From the IMG/VR virus record IMGVR_UViG_2563366998_000008: DNA of 39,748 nucleotides; one strand, 5' to 3'. The position numbers and the translations under genes are program-made. Numbering within the stretch: position 1 is the stretch's first letter; every line of letters begins with the position of its first letter. The notes under the pieces were generated by a model that searched no databases, was not told where the DNA came from, and saw only the letters and a program-made list of their open reading frames with translations. Shown piece after piece: positions 3,632 to 38,702 of this stretch. Source of the DNA: a virus (taxonomy: Duplodnaviria > Heunggongvirae > Uroviricota > Caudoviricetes).

Positions 3632-3833
3632 ATACAGCGAACGCCATTGGTTTAGTTGGATATTTACTGTGCCGGACAAAAACGGTTTGCGGGGAAATCT
3701 TAGTTAAGTAGAATAACTGCGGGTGCTTGAGGCTATCTGTCTCAGGCATGAACACCAAAAGGCAGATAGAGAAAAGCCCCAGTTAACATTACGCGTCCTG
3801 CAAGACGCTTAACATTAATCTGAGGCCATATCT

Positions 3834-3893
3834 ATGCGACACATAGAGATTAGCCTCTTACGGACCGAAAGGTCAAGGAGAAGCAGGCTATGA
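3834..3893 (+). CDS. mok-like leader uORF translationally coupled to hok
   Basis: 19-codon ORF whose TGA (3891-3893) overlaps the hok ATG (3890-3892) as ATGA. Confidence 0.3.
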   Translation: MRHIEISLLRTERSRRSRL

Positions 3894-7017: not shown

Positions 7018-7386
7018 ATGACCGAACGCATAGAATTTGTTTTGCCTTACTCGCCGACGGTGAACACTTACTGGCGACGCCGTGGCAGCACATATTTTGT
7101 ATCAAAAGCCGGGGAGCGTTATCGCCGGGCAGTGGCGCTTATTGTTCGCCAGCAGCGACTGAAATTAAGCCTGTCCGGACGGCTGGCAATAAAAATTATT
7201 GCAGAGCCACCGGATAAGCGTCGTCGTGACCTGGACAATATTCTGAAAGCACCACTGGATGCGCTGACGCACGCGGGGTTGTTAATGGACGATGAGCAGT
7301 TTGATGAAATCAATATTGTACGTGGCCAGCCAGTATCTGGTGGACGGCTGGAGATAAGAATTACAGAGGTGGGTGTGCATGAATAA
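7018..7386 (+). CDS. rusA: RusA-family Holliday junction resolvase
   Basis: 122-aa product with RRRDLDN and GGRLEI motifs resembling E. coli RusA; ATG abuts the upstream stop. Confidence 0.85.
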   Translation: MTERIEFVLPYSPTVNTYWRRRGSTYFVSKAGERYRRAVALIVRQQRLKLSLSGRLAIKIIAEPPDKRRRDLDNILKAPLDALTHAGLLMDDEQFDEINIVRGQPVSGGRLEIRITEVGVHE

Positions 7387-8068
7387 CCAGTATTTACAGT
7401 TTGTTCGTGAGCAACTCATGATTGCCACTGCAGATCTCAGTGGGTCGACAAAATGCCAGCTGGAAGCCTGGCAGGAAAATGCCCTGTTCGATACAGGGCG
7501 TTACAGACGCAAAAAAATTCGTTACCGCGATGAGGTAACCGGAAAAATGATCACGCGGGATAATCCCCCGATCCAGGGTAAACAATCACTGGCGAAAGGC
7601 TCATCAATTGCGCTGGTCAGTCCTGTTGAGTTTGCAACATCATCGTGGCGGCGTGCTGTTCTGGAACTGGAAGAACATCAGAAGGCGTGGTTGTTGTGGT
7701 GTTATGGCGGAAACATTTGCTGGGAGCATCAGATCGCGATAACGCAGTGGGGGTGGAGTGAATTTAAAACTCAGTCCGGCTCCAGAAAAATTGCAGTGAA
7801 AACGCTGGAGCGTGTGAAGAAGTTGATCTGGCTGGCGGCACAGGATGTCAGAGGATGGGTTACCGGGTGTGAGGTCTACCAGAGACAGGAGCTTGCCAGA
7901 CTGTGTGGAGTTAAGCCTGATAACTGGAGCCATAATTATGCGAACTACTGGCGTGAGATGTGCGATATTTTTAAGCGCCTCGATAGAGAATCCTTGATTT
8001 GCTCCGTGAAAATAAGAGCGCAACAAAAAGCGACCTTTTCACGACGAGATATTGCAAAAGTCAATTAA
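7379..8068 (+). CDS. Q: late-gene antiterminator Q-like protein
   Basis: Position directly after rusA and before a promoter/terminator pair and the lysis genes; ATG 7379 with GAGGTGGG RBS; family assignment by context. Confidence 0.6.
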   Translation: MNNQYLQFVREQLMIATADLSGSTKCQLEAWQENALFDTGRYRRKKIRYRDEVTGKMITRDNPPIQGKQSLAKGSSIALVSPVEFATSSWRRAVLELEEHQKAWLLWCYGGNICWEHQIAITQWGWSEFKTQSGSRKIAVKTLERVKKLIWLAAQDVRGWVTGCEVYQRQELARLCGVKPDNWSHNYANYWREMCDIFKRLDRESLICSVKIRAQQKATFSRRDIAKVN

Positions 8069-8096
8069 ATCGCGTATGTTTCGTATAAATCTGATA
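8061..8096 (+). promoter_or_regulatory. candidate late promoter (PR'-like)
   Basis: TCAATT - 17 bp - TATAAA just downstream of Q and ~40 bp upstream of the terminator. Confidence 0.3.
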
Positions 8097-8133
8097 TTTT
8101 GCCGATTTTGTACGTGATGGCAAAGTAAGAAAA

Positions 8134-8158
8134 AACCACCGCCAGGTGGTTTTTTTTA
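8134..8158 (+). terminator. rho-independent terminator (tR'-like)
   Basis: AACCACC-GCCA-GGTGGTT hairpin followed by TTTTTTT. Confidence 0.6.
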
Positions 8159-8280
8159 TGTCCGAAAATCGCGTCAGTACAGTAAACGCGCTGGTGGTTG
8201 CGAATACGGGTCTTTCAGCTTGCCGGCTTTTTCGACAAGAGTTATTGGTATGTCACGTTAACCGGAAAAGGGAAAAAGAC

Positions 8281-8478
8281 ATGCTAAAACAGCAGGATAT
8301 GACAGAAGCCGCCAGAGTGGTGTTTAATGAATTAAGCGTTACCGACCCGGCGACAGTCAGGGAGATTGCACAGAATACTTACCTTTCACGCGAACGCTGC
8401 CAGTTAATACTGACCCAGCTTGTTATGGCGGGTCTGGCAGACTATCAGTTTGGTTGTTACAGACACCTTCAGTCCTGA
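8281..8478 (+). CDS. small hypothetical protein (65 aa)
   Basis: ATG 8281; alternative upstream ATG at 8158 lies inside the terminator T-run; weak hairpin plus T-run at its stop. Confidence 0.35.
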   Translation: MLKQQDMTEAARVVFNELSVTDPATVREIAQNTYLSRERCQLILTQLVMAGLADYQFGCYRHLQS

Positions 8479-8791
8479 AGGCTTTTTTATTTGTGGTAAA
8501 TGGGCGGCTGGTGGGTGTGGTGGTTGTTGCTTTCCCGTTGCTGAAAAAGAAAACGCCAGACTGTTAGCCGGGTATCAGTTAGCGGGAGAAATTTTTAAAT
8601 ACTTCACAATTCAGGCGGTTGACTGTTGTCTGGTTTGCGGGGAGTTTGTTAAAAGAAACTGGCATGGTGAATCCCCCTGTGCGGAGGGGCAATCAGCGAG
8701 TAGGTATATGGGATAATCGCGGATTCAGGTGCTGGTACTGAATTCACCGGGAGGCACCCGGCACCATGCAATGGCACATAGCGCCACTCTC

Positions 8792-8827
8792 CAGCCCCTC
8801 TCCGGAGGGGCTGTTTATATTGATTTT
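8792..8827 (+). terminator. hairpin with T-rich tail between convergent genes
   Basis: CAGCCCCTC-TCCG-GAGGGGCTG followed by TTTATATTGATTTT. Confidence 0.4.
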
Positions 8828-8847
8828 GTCAGATGTGAGTAAACTCC

Positions 8848-9183
8848 TTATGGACTTTGTTGTTTTAGCCCATAAGGACATATTTGCAGAGTGCAACGGT
8901 TATTAAAGCATTCATTCAATACGTTATCTGTATTTGTAGGGCATTCCTGGCTGTTTTTGATTAAATTCCAGAATGTTTTATTGAATGGTACTACGTTGTA
9001 AATGGTTACAGGTAGCACTTTGTTATTGAGCATGATACCTGTGTGAGTCAGTGTAAATATACTTTCAGGAGGTAAGAAAGCATCCGATTGATACCAGATT
9101 ATTAATTTTATTTTACTCCATATGACTGAAAAAGATATTCCGCATGATGGCTGGATAACTGTATCAATCACAATCCACTTCAT
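8848..9183 (-). CDS. hypothetical protein (111 aa) in an AT-rich island, opposite strand to the late operon
   Basis: Minus-strand ORF with AAGGA about 6 nt upstream of ATG; AT-rich flanks; no recognised domain. Confidence 0.45.
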
Positions 9184-9443
9184 TTAGTTTCCTTGTTTAT
9201 GCCTTGCTGGTGATGTTCTGAAAAGTATAAATGATATTTTTGATTGTAAACCATAGAGCAGAATTATTTTTCTGATGTTGTTTATTGTTTATTTAAATGC
9301 AGGGTGGTTTATATCTCGTCTTGTAGTTTATCCATGCATATCTGCTTGATGATGAGGTTTTTATTTAAGGTATGGTTTTGTGTTTTTTCTGTATTACATG
9401 TCAGGTATTTTAAAGAATCATTTTTCAGATGGTGGAAAGAACC

Positions 9444-9632
9444 ATGGCATTTAAACACTATGATGTTGTCAGGGCGGCGTCGCCGTCAGATCTTGCGGAA
9501 AAGCTGACACATAAACTGAAAGAGGGCTGGCAGCCGTTTGGTAGTCCGGTGGCCATAACCCCTTATACCCTGATGCAGGCGATTGCAGCAGAAGGTGATG
9601 TGGTGGTCAGTGGTGCAACTGAGCCGGAGTGA
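9444..9632 (+). CDS. DUF1737-like small phage protein
   Basis: MAFKHYDVVRAASPSDLAEKLTHKLKEGWQPFGSP... resembles small DUF1737 prophage proteins; alternative start at 9429. Confidence 0.55.
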   Translation: MAFKHYDVVRAASPSDLAEKLTHKLKEGWQPFGSPVAITPYTLMQAIAAEGDVVVSGATEPE

Positions 9633-9874
9633 TACTACGTCATCGTACTGGCCCGGCATTCCAGGCCATAAAAGACGGTCTGGCAGTGGGACTAAATGCA
9701 CTGACGCTGACGGATATTACCAAAAATGCAACGTATGGCGTTGAGATAGAAAGTCTGGTGCTGGAGATAAATGCACCGGCATCATCATAAAAAGTGAGCC
9801 AGTCAAATGGAAGGTATCGTTAAACTCACCGGTAGTGTCAGTGGGTCGTCTGAGACGCCTGCATGAGTTATCAG

Positions 9875-9939: not shown

Positions 9940-10155
9940 ATGTACCAGATGGAAAAAATCACAACAGGTGTGTCATACACCACGTCAGCGGTGGGAACGG
10001 GCTACTGGTTCCTGCAGTTGCTGGACAGGGTTTCCCCGTCTCAGTGGGCGGCAATAGGCGTGCTGGGGAGTCTGCTGTTTGGGCTGCTGACATATCTGAC
10101 TAACCTGTATTTCAAAATCAAAGAGGACCGGCGTAAGGCGGCGCGGGGAGAGTAA
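9940..10155 (+). CDS. S: class II holin, phage-21 S-type pinholin
   Basis: Dual-start MYQM...; translation closely resembles S21 as recalled (...[22 protein letters not shown]...[21 protein letters not shown]). Confidence 0.85.
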
Positions 10156-11086: not shown

Positions 11087-11620
11087 ATGAACACCAAAAT
11101 CAAATACGGCCTGTCGGCTGCCGTTCTGGCGCTGATTGCCGCTGGTGCGCCTGCGCCTGACATTCTCGACCAGTTTCTGGATGAAAAGGAAGGCAACCAC
11201 ACCACGGCATACCGTGATGGTGCAGGTATCTGGACCATCTGCCGTGGTGCCATCATGGTGGATGGCAAACCTGTCGTTCCGGGCATGAAGTTGTCGAAGG
11301 AAAAATGCGACCAGGTTAACGCCATTGAGCGTGATAAAGCGCTGGCGTGGGTGGAGAAAAACATCAGAGTGCCGCTGACCGAACCCCAGAAAGCGGGGAT
11401 CGCGTCATTCTGTCCGTACAACATTGGTCCCGGTAAGTGTTTCCCGTCGACGTTTTACAGACGAATTAATGCTGGTGATCGAAAAGGTGCCTGCGAAGCG
11501 ATTCGCTGGTGGATTAAGGACGGTGGCAGAGACTGCCGTATTCGTTCAAACAACTGTTACGGTCAGGTATCCCGTCGTGACCAGGAGAGCGCGCTGGCGT
11601 GCTGGGGTATCGACAGATAA
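11087..11620 (+). CDS. R: SAR endolysin (phage-21 R-type lysozyme)
   Basis: N-terminal Gly/Ala-rich signal-anchor-release segment (LSAAVLALIAAGA) plus lysozyme core resembling R21. Confidence 0.85.
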   Translation: MNTKIKYGLSAAVLALIAAGAPAPDILDQFLDEKEGNHTTAYRDGAGIWTICRGAIMVDGKPVVPGMKLSKEKCDQVNAIERDKALAWVEKNIRVPLTEPQKAGIASFCPYNIGPGKCFPSTFYRRINAGDRKGACEAIRWWIKDGGRDCRIRSNNCYGQVSRRDQESALACWGIDR

Positions 11621-11973: not shown

Positions 11974-12105
11974 ATGTCAGACAAACTCATAACGCTGGCG
12001 AAGATCCTCTGTGTAATTGTCGGCATTTCATTTTCACTAATGCTGGTTGCTCTTTTTCTTTCCATGGCCTGGATGATGTTGTCTTCGTCGGGGTTGCTGG
12101 GGTGA
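11974..12105 (+). CDS. small hydrophobic membrane protein (43 aa)
   Basis: ATG 11974 after GGGAGGA; single predicted transmembrane helix; stop overlaps the Rz start. Confidence 0.35.
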
Positions 12106-12575
12106 ACATAAACCGAATGCTTTCCGCGTTTATCGTTATTCTGCTGGTGGCCTGTGGTGCGCTGTGGATGGCAACAGACCATTACCGTGATAACGCGATT
12201 ACCTACAAAGCGCAGCGCGATAACAAAGCCAGTGAACTGAAGCTGGCGAACGCAACCATTACTGATATGCAGGTGCGCCAGCGCGATGTTGCTGCGCTCG
12301 ATGCAAAATACTCGAGGGAATTAGCCGATGCGAGAGCTGAAAATGAAACTCTTCGCGCTGACGTTGCCGCTGGTCGTAAGCGCCTGCGGATCAACGCCAC
12401 CTGTCCAGGCTCCGTGCGTGAAGCCCCCACCACCTCCGGCGTGGATAATGCAACCGGCCCCCAACTGGCAGACACCGTTACACGGGATTATTTCACCCTC
12501 AGAGAGCGGCTGATGACGATGCACAAGCAACTGGAAGGGGCACAGGACTATATCCGCACTCAGTGCCTGAAATAA
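12102..12575 (+). CDS. Rz: Rz i-spanin
   Basis: N-terminal TM then ...[14 protein letters not shown]...VAAGRKRL...[10 protein letters not shown]..., matching lambda Rz; start GTG 12102 or ATG 12117. Confidence 0.85.
12328..12513 (+). CDS. Rz1: Rz1 o-spanin lipoprotein, embedded in Rz in the +1 frame
   Basis: Signal peptide with lipobox ending in Cys, then proline-rich [14 protein letters not shown]..., matching lambda Rz1. Confidence 0.8.
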
Positions 12576-20204: not shown

Positions 20205-20930
20205 GCCTGACTGATTGTGCACAGAAAACCCCCAGCTAGGCTGGGGGTTCCGGAAAGCTTTCAGCTTTGAGCCAGTTATTAAAACCCCTTTTGATTTGTT
20301 AAAACACCTTGCGGTCTGGCAACTGCAAGTGTCAAACAAGAAATCAAAAGGGGGTCCCAATGGGGAACGAAAAGAGCTTAGCGCACACCCGATGGAACTG
20401 TAAATATCACATAGTTTTTGCGCCAAAATACCGAAGACAGGTGTTCTACAGAGAGAAGCGTAGAGCAATAGGCAGTATTTTGAGAAAGCTGTGTGAGTGG
20501 AAAAGCGTACGGATTCTGGAAGCTGAATGCTGTGCAGATCATATCCATATGCTTGTGGAGATCCCGCCTAAAATGAGCGTATCCGGGTTTATGGGATATC
20601 TGAAAGGGAAAAGCAGTCTGATGCTTTACGAGCAGTTTGGTGATTTGAAATTCAAATACAGGAACAGGGAGTTCTGGTGCAGAGGGTACTACGTCGATAC
20701 AGTGGGTAAGAACACGGCGAAGATACAGGATTACATAAAGCACCAGCTTGAAGAGGATAAAATGGGAGAGCAGTTATCGATTCCCTATCCGGGCAGCCCG
20801 TTTACGGGCCGTAAGTAACGAAGTTGGATGCAAATGTCAGATCGTGTGCGCCTGTTAGGGCGCGGCTGGTAAGAGAGCCTTATAGGCGCATTTGAAAAAC
20901 CTCCGGCTATGCCGGAGGATATTTATTTTC
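20205..20930 (+). mobile_element. IS200-family insertion sequence (boundaries approximate, +/- 30 bp)
   Basis: Y1 transposase gene flanked by subterminal perfect hairpins (CCCCCAGC-TAGG-CTGGGGG near the left end; CTCCGGC-TAT-GCCGGAG near the right); enlarges the D-E gap to 769 bp. Confidence 0.75.
20360..20818 (+). CDS. tnpA: IS200/IS605-family Y1 (HUH) transposase TnpA
   Basis: MGNEKSLAHTRWNCKYHIVFAPKYRR...HIHMLVEIPPK...YLKGKSS characteristic of IS200 TnpA. Confidence 0.9.
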   Translation: MGNEKSLAHTRWNCKYHIVFAPKYRRQVFYREKRRAIGSILRKLCEWKSVRILEAECCADHIHMLVEIPPKMSVSGFMGYLKGKSSLMLYEQFGDLKFKYRNREFWCRGYYVDTVGKNTAKIQDYIKHQLEEDKMGEQLSIPYPGSPFTGRK

Positions 20931-38118: not shown

Positions 38119-38702
38119 TGGCATTCAGAATGAGTGAACAAGCACGGACCATAAAAATTTATAATCTGCTGGCCGGAACTAATGAATTTATTGGTGAAGG
38201 TGACGCATATATTCCGCCTCATACAGGTCTGCCAGCAAACAGTACCGATATTGCACCACCAGATATTCCTGCTGGCTTTGTGGCTGTTTTCAACAGTGAT
38301 GAGGCATCGTGGCATCTCGTTGAAGACCATCGGGGGAAAACGGTTTATGACGTAGCGTCAGGGGACGAGTTATTTATTTCTGAACTCGGTCCGTTACCGG
38401 AAAATGTTACCTGGTTATCGCCGGAAGGGGAGTTTCAGAAGTGGAACGGCACAGCCTGGGTGAAGGATACGGAAGCAGAAAAACTGTTCCGGATCCGGGA
38501 GGCGGAAGAAACAAAAAACAACCTGATGCAGGTAGCCAGTGAGCATATTGCGCCGCTTCAGGATGCTGCAGATCTGGAAATTGCAACGGAGGAAGAAACC
38601 TCATTGCTGGAAGCCTGGAAAAAGTATCGGGTGTTGCTGAACCGTGTTGATACATCAACTGCACCTGATATTGAGTGGCCTACGAACCCTGTCAGGGAGT
38701 AA
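38118..38702 (+). CDS. tfa: tail fiber assembly protein (Tfa)
   Basis: 194 aa; start overlaps stf stop (TAATG); typical Tfa C-terminus. Confidence 0.9.
38538..38702 (+). repeat. tfa 3' segment, direct repeat copy A
   Basis: ~165 bp, roughly 85-90% identical by eye to 39587..39748. Confidence 0.8.

Follow-up and report, generated by a model that had tools for sequence, protein, structure and literature searches.

The closest described relatives of the gene reported here are RssB anti-adaptors of Escherichia coli. iraL was characterized in strain CFT073 as a homologue of iraM (58.9 % amino acid identity by the alignment of that paper) located on the potB island (Hryckowian et al., 2014, mBio; PMC4045071). 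In the CFT073 lysogen it is transcribed during log phase from its own sigma-70-type promoter; deletion of iraL lowered the log-phase level of RpoS in CFT073 and in Shigella sonnei and shortened the RpoS half-life from ∼5 min to ∼2.5 min, and a copy of iraL with its native promoter at attTn7 was able to complement (PMC4045071). IraL also co-purified with RssB and, in two-hybrid assays, interacted only with RssB's N-terminal domain (PMC4045071), and IraL levels were found to be raised in a CFT073 fur mutant (PMC7157518). For the wider family, a crystal structure of IraM with RssB places 15 IraM residues at the interface (PMC10844676). Here we describe a gene in IMG/VR record IMGVR_UViG_2563366998_000008, a 39,748-nt stretch of Caudoviricetes DNA (the whole of which we refer to as the window) that is a lambdoid prophage of E. 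coli; many E. coli chromosomes are 100 % identical to a 1.9-kb query taken around the gene. The gene lies on the minus strand between the Q antiterminator and the lysis genes, and is almost certainly prophage iraL, a known RssB anti-adaptor gene carried as a self-contained moron that is expressed in the lysogen.

An initial annotation, made from the nucleotide sequence alone, had drawn attention to a 111-aa open reading frame (ORF) in this interval with a good ribosome-binding site and an orientation unlike that of its neighbours. We found the ORF as described (coordinates of all features are collected in Table 1), with the Shine–Dalgarno sequence AAGGA at 9194–9190 on the minus strand, 6 nt from the ATG at 9183. 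All other complete annotated coding sequences (CDSs) within ∼9 kb on either side are on the plus strand, the sole other minus-strand feature nearby being a pseudo-CDS called by the annotation pipeline PGAP that overlaps the small RNA (sRNA) gene STnc100. The protein is identical in sequence to UniProt entry IRAM_ECO27 and to RefSeq WP_000871291.1, which is labelled 'anti-adapter protein IraM' and is also encoded by CFT073 C_RS06710 (1343465–1343800), in a prophage integrated beside potC/potB. At the nucleotide level the window and CFT073 iraL CDSs agree at 334 of 336 positions (99.4 %), the two differences being synonymous. The earlier statement that no domain could be recognised is contradicted by three matches: NCBIfam NF007393/PRK09919, 'anti-adapter protein IraM' (162 bits, the cut-off being 121; residues 1–110 aligning with positions 1–113 of the 114 in the profile); the IraM fragment of known crystal structure, PDB 8TWD chain A (phmmer E = 9 × 10−32, residues 1–78); and phrog_4407 (244 bits). 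A Pfam scan of both IraL and K-12 IraM returned no match even at E ≤ 10, and identification thus rested on NCBIfam, PDB and PHROGs; a precomputed Pfam table gives PF11183, which we take to be PmrD, for all IraL homologues. A word-indexed protein homologue search returned 20 clusters, all from Escherichia, and did not reach Salmonella RssC. The gene is, as such, one that is already named and experimentally characterized (published in 2014, with a family structure in 2023), and nothing that we found contradicts the identification.

As the protein goes by the name 'anti-adapter protein IraM' in RefSeq, UniProt and NCBIfam alike, it might be taken for a K-12-type IraM, induced through PhoP upon Mg2+ starvation, rather than for the log-phase IraL. 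This we regard as extremely improbable. Identity to K-12 IraM is only 62 % (over 107 aa), against complete identity to CFT073 IraL, and DNA similarity to the K-12 locus ends just upstream of the start codon, with unrelated promoters: in DNA alignment, the promoter region of K-12 iraM showed no similarity to that of the gene in the window. The genomic context also differs, as K-12 iraM adjoins icdC just outside the annotated e14 element, whilst the gene in the window is placed between a PF06323 Q gene and genes for a P21-type holin, lysozyme and Rz, which is the setting of a lambdoid prophage and not that of the K-12 locus. As a claim of orthology, for which we required at least 95 % identity together with a common promoter region, the K-12-type assignment is refuted by the 62 % amino acid identity and by the lack of any alignment upstream of the start codon. 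With regard to the K-12 gene itself, we noted that the MG1655 record has iraM outside the annotated e14, just beyond the icdC duplication; PMC4045071 places it on e14. By every property that could be tested, the gene in the window belongs to the IraM family and to the IraL subfamily within it, and it lacks the properties of K-12-type IraM. The RefSeq name is correct for the family, and masks the subfamily.

The identification as iraL is accompanied by a wide distribution in a constant setting. Of 5426 complete E. coli genomes, 1446 contain the iraL CDS together with its promoter (8848–9300) at an identity of ≥ 90 %, each with one to three copies. A comparison of the interval between Q and the lysis genes across related prophages, which had been proposed with the initial annotation, placed iraL, in each of the five contexts examined, between an antiterminator and lysis genes. 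In CFT073 and in four genomes sampled at different points of the ranking, one finds in succession an antiterminator, tRNA gene(s), DUF3927, STnc100, iraL (minus strand), DUF1737 remnant, small ORF, holin and lysis genes. No tRNA genes are present in the window; in other prophages tRNA Ile/Arg genes occupy this slot. The left junction of the window (PF06323 Q with a 65-aa ORF) is rarer, being present in 132 genomes against the 1446 with iraL. Additionally, a gene of 98 % identity occupies this position in four phage records that were submitted as Escherichia phages (vB_EcoS-).

We next turn to expression. The published iraL sequence from 5'-RACE (rapid amplification of the 5' ends of cDNA), ACATCACCAGCAAGGCATAAACAAGGAAACCA (PMC4045071), matches the window at 31 of 32 bases, from 9216 on the minus strand. 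Upstream of this mapped start, a −35 hexamer TTTACA (9250–9245) is followed by TATACT (9229–9224) at a 15-nt spacer and by the overlapping TACTTT (9227–9222) at a 17-nt spacer; sigma-70-like −10 and −35 elements have been stated for iraL (PMC4045071). A consensus promoter scan allowing spacers of 16–18 nt did not list the TTTACA/TATACT pair, the spacer of which is 15 nt, and TACTTT has too few −10 matches. A minus-strand site that the scan did return (9291–9263) lies upstream of the mapped start and was not adopted. The −100 to +33 fragment (9316–9184), which was enough for complementation in CFT073 (PMC4045071), is 97.7 % identical between the window and CFT073, where we had asked for at least 96 % in a member of the IraL subfamily; both hexamers (TTTACA, TATACT) are the same in the two sequences, as is the start site. 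Inspection of 9217–9300 by eye for a PhoP-box-like or Fur-box-like site gave poor partial matches only.

The base composition of the region is likewise distinctive. The initial annotation had described the whole of 8480–9430 as a markedly AT-rich island. This is borne out for 8823–9443, which at a GC fraction of 0.329 is the lowest-GC stretch of the 39.7-kb window, but not for 8480–8847 (GC 0.50), about a third to 40 % of the range claimed; the STnc100 interval (8633–8822) is at 0.55. A 621-bp stretch with a GC fraction below 0.38 occurs at this place only in the window (mean 0.523, standard deviation 0.055; fraction as low or lower 0.001), and GC drops to 0.304 over 9184–9443. Such low GC would mark separately acquired DNA. 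Together with the mapped promoter and the position between Q and the holin, it gives the gene the features of a moron, for which a dedicated terminator was not found. The suggestion in the initial annotation that the ORF is lysogen-expressed cargo in the slot between Q and the lysis genes agrees well with its identity as IraL, as the identical CFT073 protein is made from its own promoter in log-phase lysogens.

With respect to function, 11 of the 15 residues that contact RssB in the IraM structure are identical in IraL, the changes being T13S, L75I, I64V and H63N. By cluster, all five contacts of cluster I are retained, cluster II has T13S and L75I, and cluster III has H63N and I64V, with P66 retained. 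The changed residues lie in clusters touching the RssB C-terminal domain and linker, and may in this way fit the binding of IraL to the N-terminal domain alone. An AlphaFold2 model built on a 16-sequence alignment was of low confidence (predicted local distance difference test, pLDDT, 54.8; below 50 for the tail, residues 76–111), and shows strands followed by a helix at 69–77; it is uninformative on the tail. Even with this weak model, the structure prediction that had been proposed for the 111-aa protein was informative: Foldseek returned IraM 8TWD_A first (E = 1 × 10−6), followed by PmrD (4HN7 and 2JSO). From these comparisons, residues 1–78 of IraL are predicted to form the IraM/PmrD beta-barrel-plus-helix fold, made up in IraM of an antiparallel beta-barrel, a beta-hairpin and one helix, with most RssB-contact residues kept. 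By analogy with the identical CFT073 protein and with iraL of S. sonnei, for which this has been demonstrated experimentally, IraL of this prophage is predicted to bind RssB and to stabilize RpoS against ClpXP.

Several observations weigh against an active IraL of this kind in the prophage. The promoter region of the window differs from that of CFT073 at three positions, namely 9244 (next to the −35 hexamer), 9217 (−1) and 9186, and the best −35/−10 pair has a short spacer of 15 nt. A natural −35 variant of iraL has been noted, and its effect on expression left open (PMC4045071). The evidence for expression and RssB binding comes from CFT073 and S. sonnei, and not from the strain of the window. 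In two-hybrid assays IraM binds both RssB domains and IraL the N-terminal domain only (PMC4045071), such that details of the IraL complex may differ from those of the IraM co-crystal. We also found no convincing intrinsic terminator for iraL on the minus strand. Taken with the GC fraction of 0.30–0.33 across iraL and its upstream region, the promoter differences could mean that iraL is intact but silent here, as an H-NS-silenced AT-rich passenger or through a dead promoter variant, and makes no contribution to the lysogen under ordinary conditions. AT-rich DNA is of the kind bound by H-NS, and K-12 iraM is H-NS repressed. Nevertheless, we consider a silent gene very unlikely: the identical protein is expressed in log phase in CFT073 from a promoter fragment that is 97.7 % identical, the two hexamers and the start site are unaltered, the ORF is intact with synonymous differences only, and iraL is kept in 27 % of complete E. 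coli genomes.

The initial annotation had further reported a hairpin at 8792–8813 in association with the ORF. The hairpin is real, consisting of CAGCCCCTC-TCCG-GAGGGGCTG with a 9-bp stem (seven GC pairs), a 4-nt loop and a predicted energy of −18.4 kcal/mol; it belongs, however, to a convergent plus-strand sRNA gene and not evidently to the ORF. This sRNA is STnc100, for which Rfam RF02076 matches over its full model (1–206) with 132.4 bits against a gathering threshold of 47 (E = 4 × 10−29). The copy in the window is 100 % identical to that of CFT073, and published STnc_100 primers for quantitative PCR (qPCR) match at 8665–8684 and 8737–8756 (PMC12370729). STnc_100 has been detected by qPCR in other strains, and is described as prophage-associated and located just downstream of stx2 in Stx2 phages (PMC12370729); it is related to the PasD sRNAs of enteropathogenic E. 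coli (bioRxiv 10.64898/2026.05.13.724894). On the plus strand the stem is followed directly by the T-rich TTTATATTGATTTT, and the hairpin is the terminator of STnc100. In the region as a whole, terminator-like sites number eight, compared with 1.7 ± 1.3 in shuffled sequences. The sequence GGAGAGTGGCGC comes after the hairpin on the minus strand and has no U-tract, leaving iraL without an obvious intrinsic terminator of its own. Transcripts of iraL probably enter the hairpin from the other side, and it probably also serves as a 3' boundary or stabilizer of the iraL mRNA. For STnc100 itself no convincing plus-strand promoter was identified, a conserved TTGACT at 8619–8624 being without a good −10. 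The PGAP pseudo-CDS mentioned above, an 'incomplete hypothetical protein' at 8652–8777 (minus strand), lies wholly inside STnc100 on the opposite strand and is probably spurious.

The proximity of the two genes raises the question of whether the functional unit might be a convergent sRNA/mRNA pair, in which transcription of STnc100, or late read-through, controls iraL by interference or by antisense pairing at the 3' end. A gap of 25 nt separates the 3' end of STnc100 from the stop codon of iraL, which lacks a U-tract terminator, and the combined STnc100–iraL segment (8600–9300) is present in 1433 of the 1446 iraL-bearing genomes. Moreover, the convergent arrangement persists when protein identity has dropped to 75 %, as in Stx2c phage 2851, where STnc100 is likewise followed by an antisense iraM-like gene. 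However, this linkage may mirror no more than one module of DNA that has spread recently (its identity being ≥ 95 % in most genomes), and STnc100 without iraL is much more widespread (2860 genomes, with as many as 12 sites in one genome). K-12 iraM has no STnc100 neighbour, and iraL with only −100 to +33 of upstream sequence complements at attTn7 (PMC4045071). On balance, control of iraL through STnc100 is unlikely; if true, it would tie RpoS stabilization to the lysogenic state. In the reading that we prefer, iraL is a self-contained moron and STnc100 its convergent neighbour.

A conserved feature of the protein is its C-terminal tail. Members of the family share the motif CP-x9/10-C-x4/5-C-x4-CP-x-G, which is invariant in 16 of 16 aligned Escherichia members, the most distant of them at 53 % identity, and is retained, with its four cysteines, in a Salmonella fragment of 35 % identity. 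In IraL the residues are C81, P82, C92, C97, C102, P103 and G105 (codons 81–111; window 8848–8943). The tail was removed for the IraM crystal and has been described as less conserved and flexible, with cysteine and zinc unmentioned (PMC10844676). One might speculate either that the four-Cys tail is a metal- or redox-sensitive knuckle tuning the stability or activity of the anti-adaptor, or that iraL and STnc100 form one module gated by sRNA or late-operon transcription; even taken together, these two ideas amount to a rather doubtful proposition. Neither is found in the literature consulted. The same arrangement of STnc100 and iraL stands directly behind stx2c in Stx phages.

Table 1. Positions of iraL and of the surrounding features in the 39,748-nt window
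Feature	Position	Strand	Basis or remark
Q antiterminator	7373–8068	+	PF06323
tR'-like terminator	about 8130–8158	+	Terminator scan
65-aa ORF	8281–8478	+	Just after tR'; phrog_331, 124 bits
Left edge of module common with the CFT073 potB prophage; DUF3927 3' remnant	8514–8567	+	Window/CFT073 alignment
STnc100-family sRNA gene, convergent with iraL	8633–8822	+	Rfam RF02076
Intrinsic-terminator hairpin of STnc100	8792–8813	+	Terminal stem of Rfam model; 35 nt beyond iraL stop codon
iraL CDS, 111 aa, ATG start	8848–9183	−	ORF list; RssB anti-adaptor, IraM/IraL/RssC family
iraL 5' untranslated region, 33 nt, AAGGA at 9194–9190; transcript start 9216	9184–9216	−	5'-RACE match 31/32
AT-rich iraL upstream/regulatory region, GC ∼0.30	9217–9443	.	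Reaches start of next plus-strand gene
iraL core promoter	9222–9250	−	Read upstream of mapped start
Right flank, two small ORFs: 9444–9632 (DUF1737) and 9629–9790 (53 aa)	9444–9790	+	Pfam DUF1737, 62.5 bits
P21-type holin	9940–10155	+	
Lysozyme	11087–11620	+	
Rz	12102–12575	+	

The module that carries iraL has recognizable edges. Near-identity to CFT073 starts at ∼8514, inside the 3' end of DUF3927, with unrelated sequence upstream of it, and this position is a mosaic recombination junction. The DUF3927 remnant is a 15-codon ORF (8520–8567), for which RefSeq still annotates a 48-nt CDS; an intact DUF3927 CDS ends at the equivalent position in CFT073 and four other genomes. On the right, the two small ORFs match positions 1–58 and 582–632 of phrog_143 (634 aa), and PGAP flags the first as incomplete. 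They look like the N- and C-terminal remnants of a large DUF1737 late gene, the middle of which would have been lost. To the left of the module, a strong bidirectional hairpin (8130–8155, AAAAAACCACCGCCAGGTGGTTTTTT) lies ∼60–90 nt past the Q stop codon. The interval 8073–8199 gave sub-threshold Rfam matches to isrK, STnc370, Phe leader and RNAI; it looks like a short PR'–tR' leader RNA acted on by Q, and not like a member of any of these families. The 65-aa ORF shows a weak match to a TrmB-like winged-helix Pfam family (E = 9 × 10−4, below cut-off) and is followed by a terminator-like hairpin of its own (8466–8481). Elsewhere in the window, Rfam matches above gathering thresholds are prophage-typical: sok antitoxin RNA at 3721–3892 (next to hokD), and STnc490 and IS009 at 20227–20350 and 38461–38659.

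Based on the findings in CFT073, the cassette would be expected to operate as follows. In the lysogen, a sigma-70-type promoter of its own would drive transcription of iraL leftward, opposite to the late operon, during exponential growth, and the transcript from 9216, with its 33-nt leader containing AAGGA, would be translated into the 111-aa IraL. Binding of IraL to the response-regulator adaptor RssB would keep RssB from handing RpoS to ClpXP, which could approximately double the half-life of RpoS and leave the general stress regulon partly on in growing cells. Upon lytic growth, Q-modified polymerase would read through the region, antisense to iraL. Through a named and function-tested RssB anti-adaptor, about one in four sequenced E. 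coli strains, including many extraintestinal pathogens, can keep RpoS up during growth, and iraL illustrates well how a prophage rewires a core stress pathway of its host. What is added here is a precise layout of the cassette as carried by this prophage and the reassignment of the hairpin to STnc100, as well as the presence in Stx2c phages of an unannotated paralogue beside stx2c, and the conservation of a four-Cys tail hitherto omitted from structural work.

Compared with known systems, the locus is closest to iraL of CFT073, with an identical protein, a transcript start that matches and a near-identical −100 to +33 fragment, as detailed above. The likeness extends from ∼8514 rightwards through STnc100, the DUF1737 remnant, the holin and the lysis genes. 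The left flanks differ: in the window this consists of the PF06323 Q, the tR'-like terminator, the 65-aa ORF and the DUF3927 stub, whereas CFT073 has an antiterminator of another family, IS200, three tRNA genes and an intact DUF3927. K-12 IraM (PDB 8TWD; PMC10844676) resembles IraL in family, fold and Cys-rich tail, to the extent of the contacts and identity given above. Only the coding region is common to the two genes, however, as the upstream DNA is unrelated; Mg2+ starvation induces K-12 iraM by way of PhoP/PhoQ, in contrast to the log-phase activity of iraL, and the K-12 gene lies outside any slot between Q and the lysis genes, without STnc100 as a neighbour. A more distant likeness is that to PmrD (PDB 4HN7 and 2JSO), which has the same small beta-barrel-plus-helix fold as IraM and, like it, binds the receiver domain of a response regulator. 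PmrD is a connector protein that protects phospho-PmrA, its target being PmrA rather than RssB; it is ∼15 % identical and lacks the IraM-type C-terminal four-Cys tail.

Finally, the initial annotation had pointed out that this is the slot in which stx sits in Stx phages, and the comparison with these phages gives that remark a concrete form. Stx2c phage 2851 (NC_049943.1, 24239–24562, minus strand) contains an intact, unannotated 107-aa ORF that is 75 % identical to IraL. Like iraL, it is antisense to the late operon, with an STnc100-like element before it and a DUF1737 gene after it; unlike iraL, it is directly downstream of stx2cB, and its core promoter sequence differs. By tblastn, a variant ∼72–74 % identical to IraL is carried by 41 records of Stx2- or Stx2c-converting phages, in most of which the homologue is likewise unannotated.

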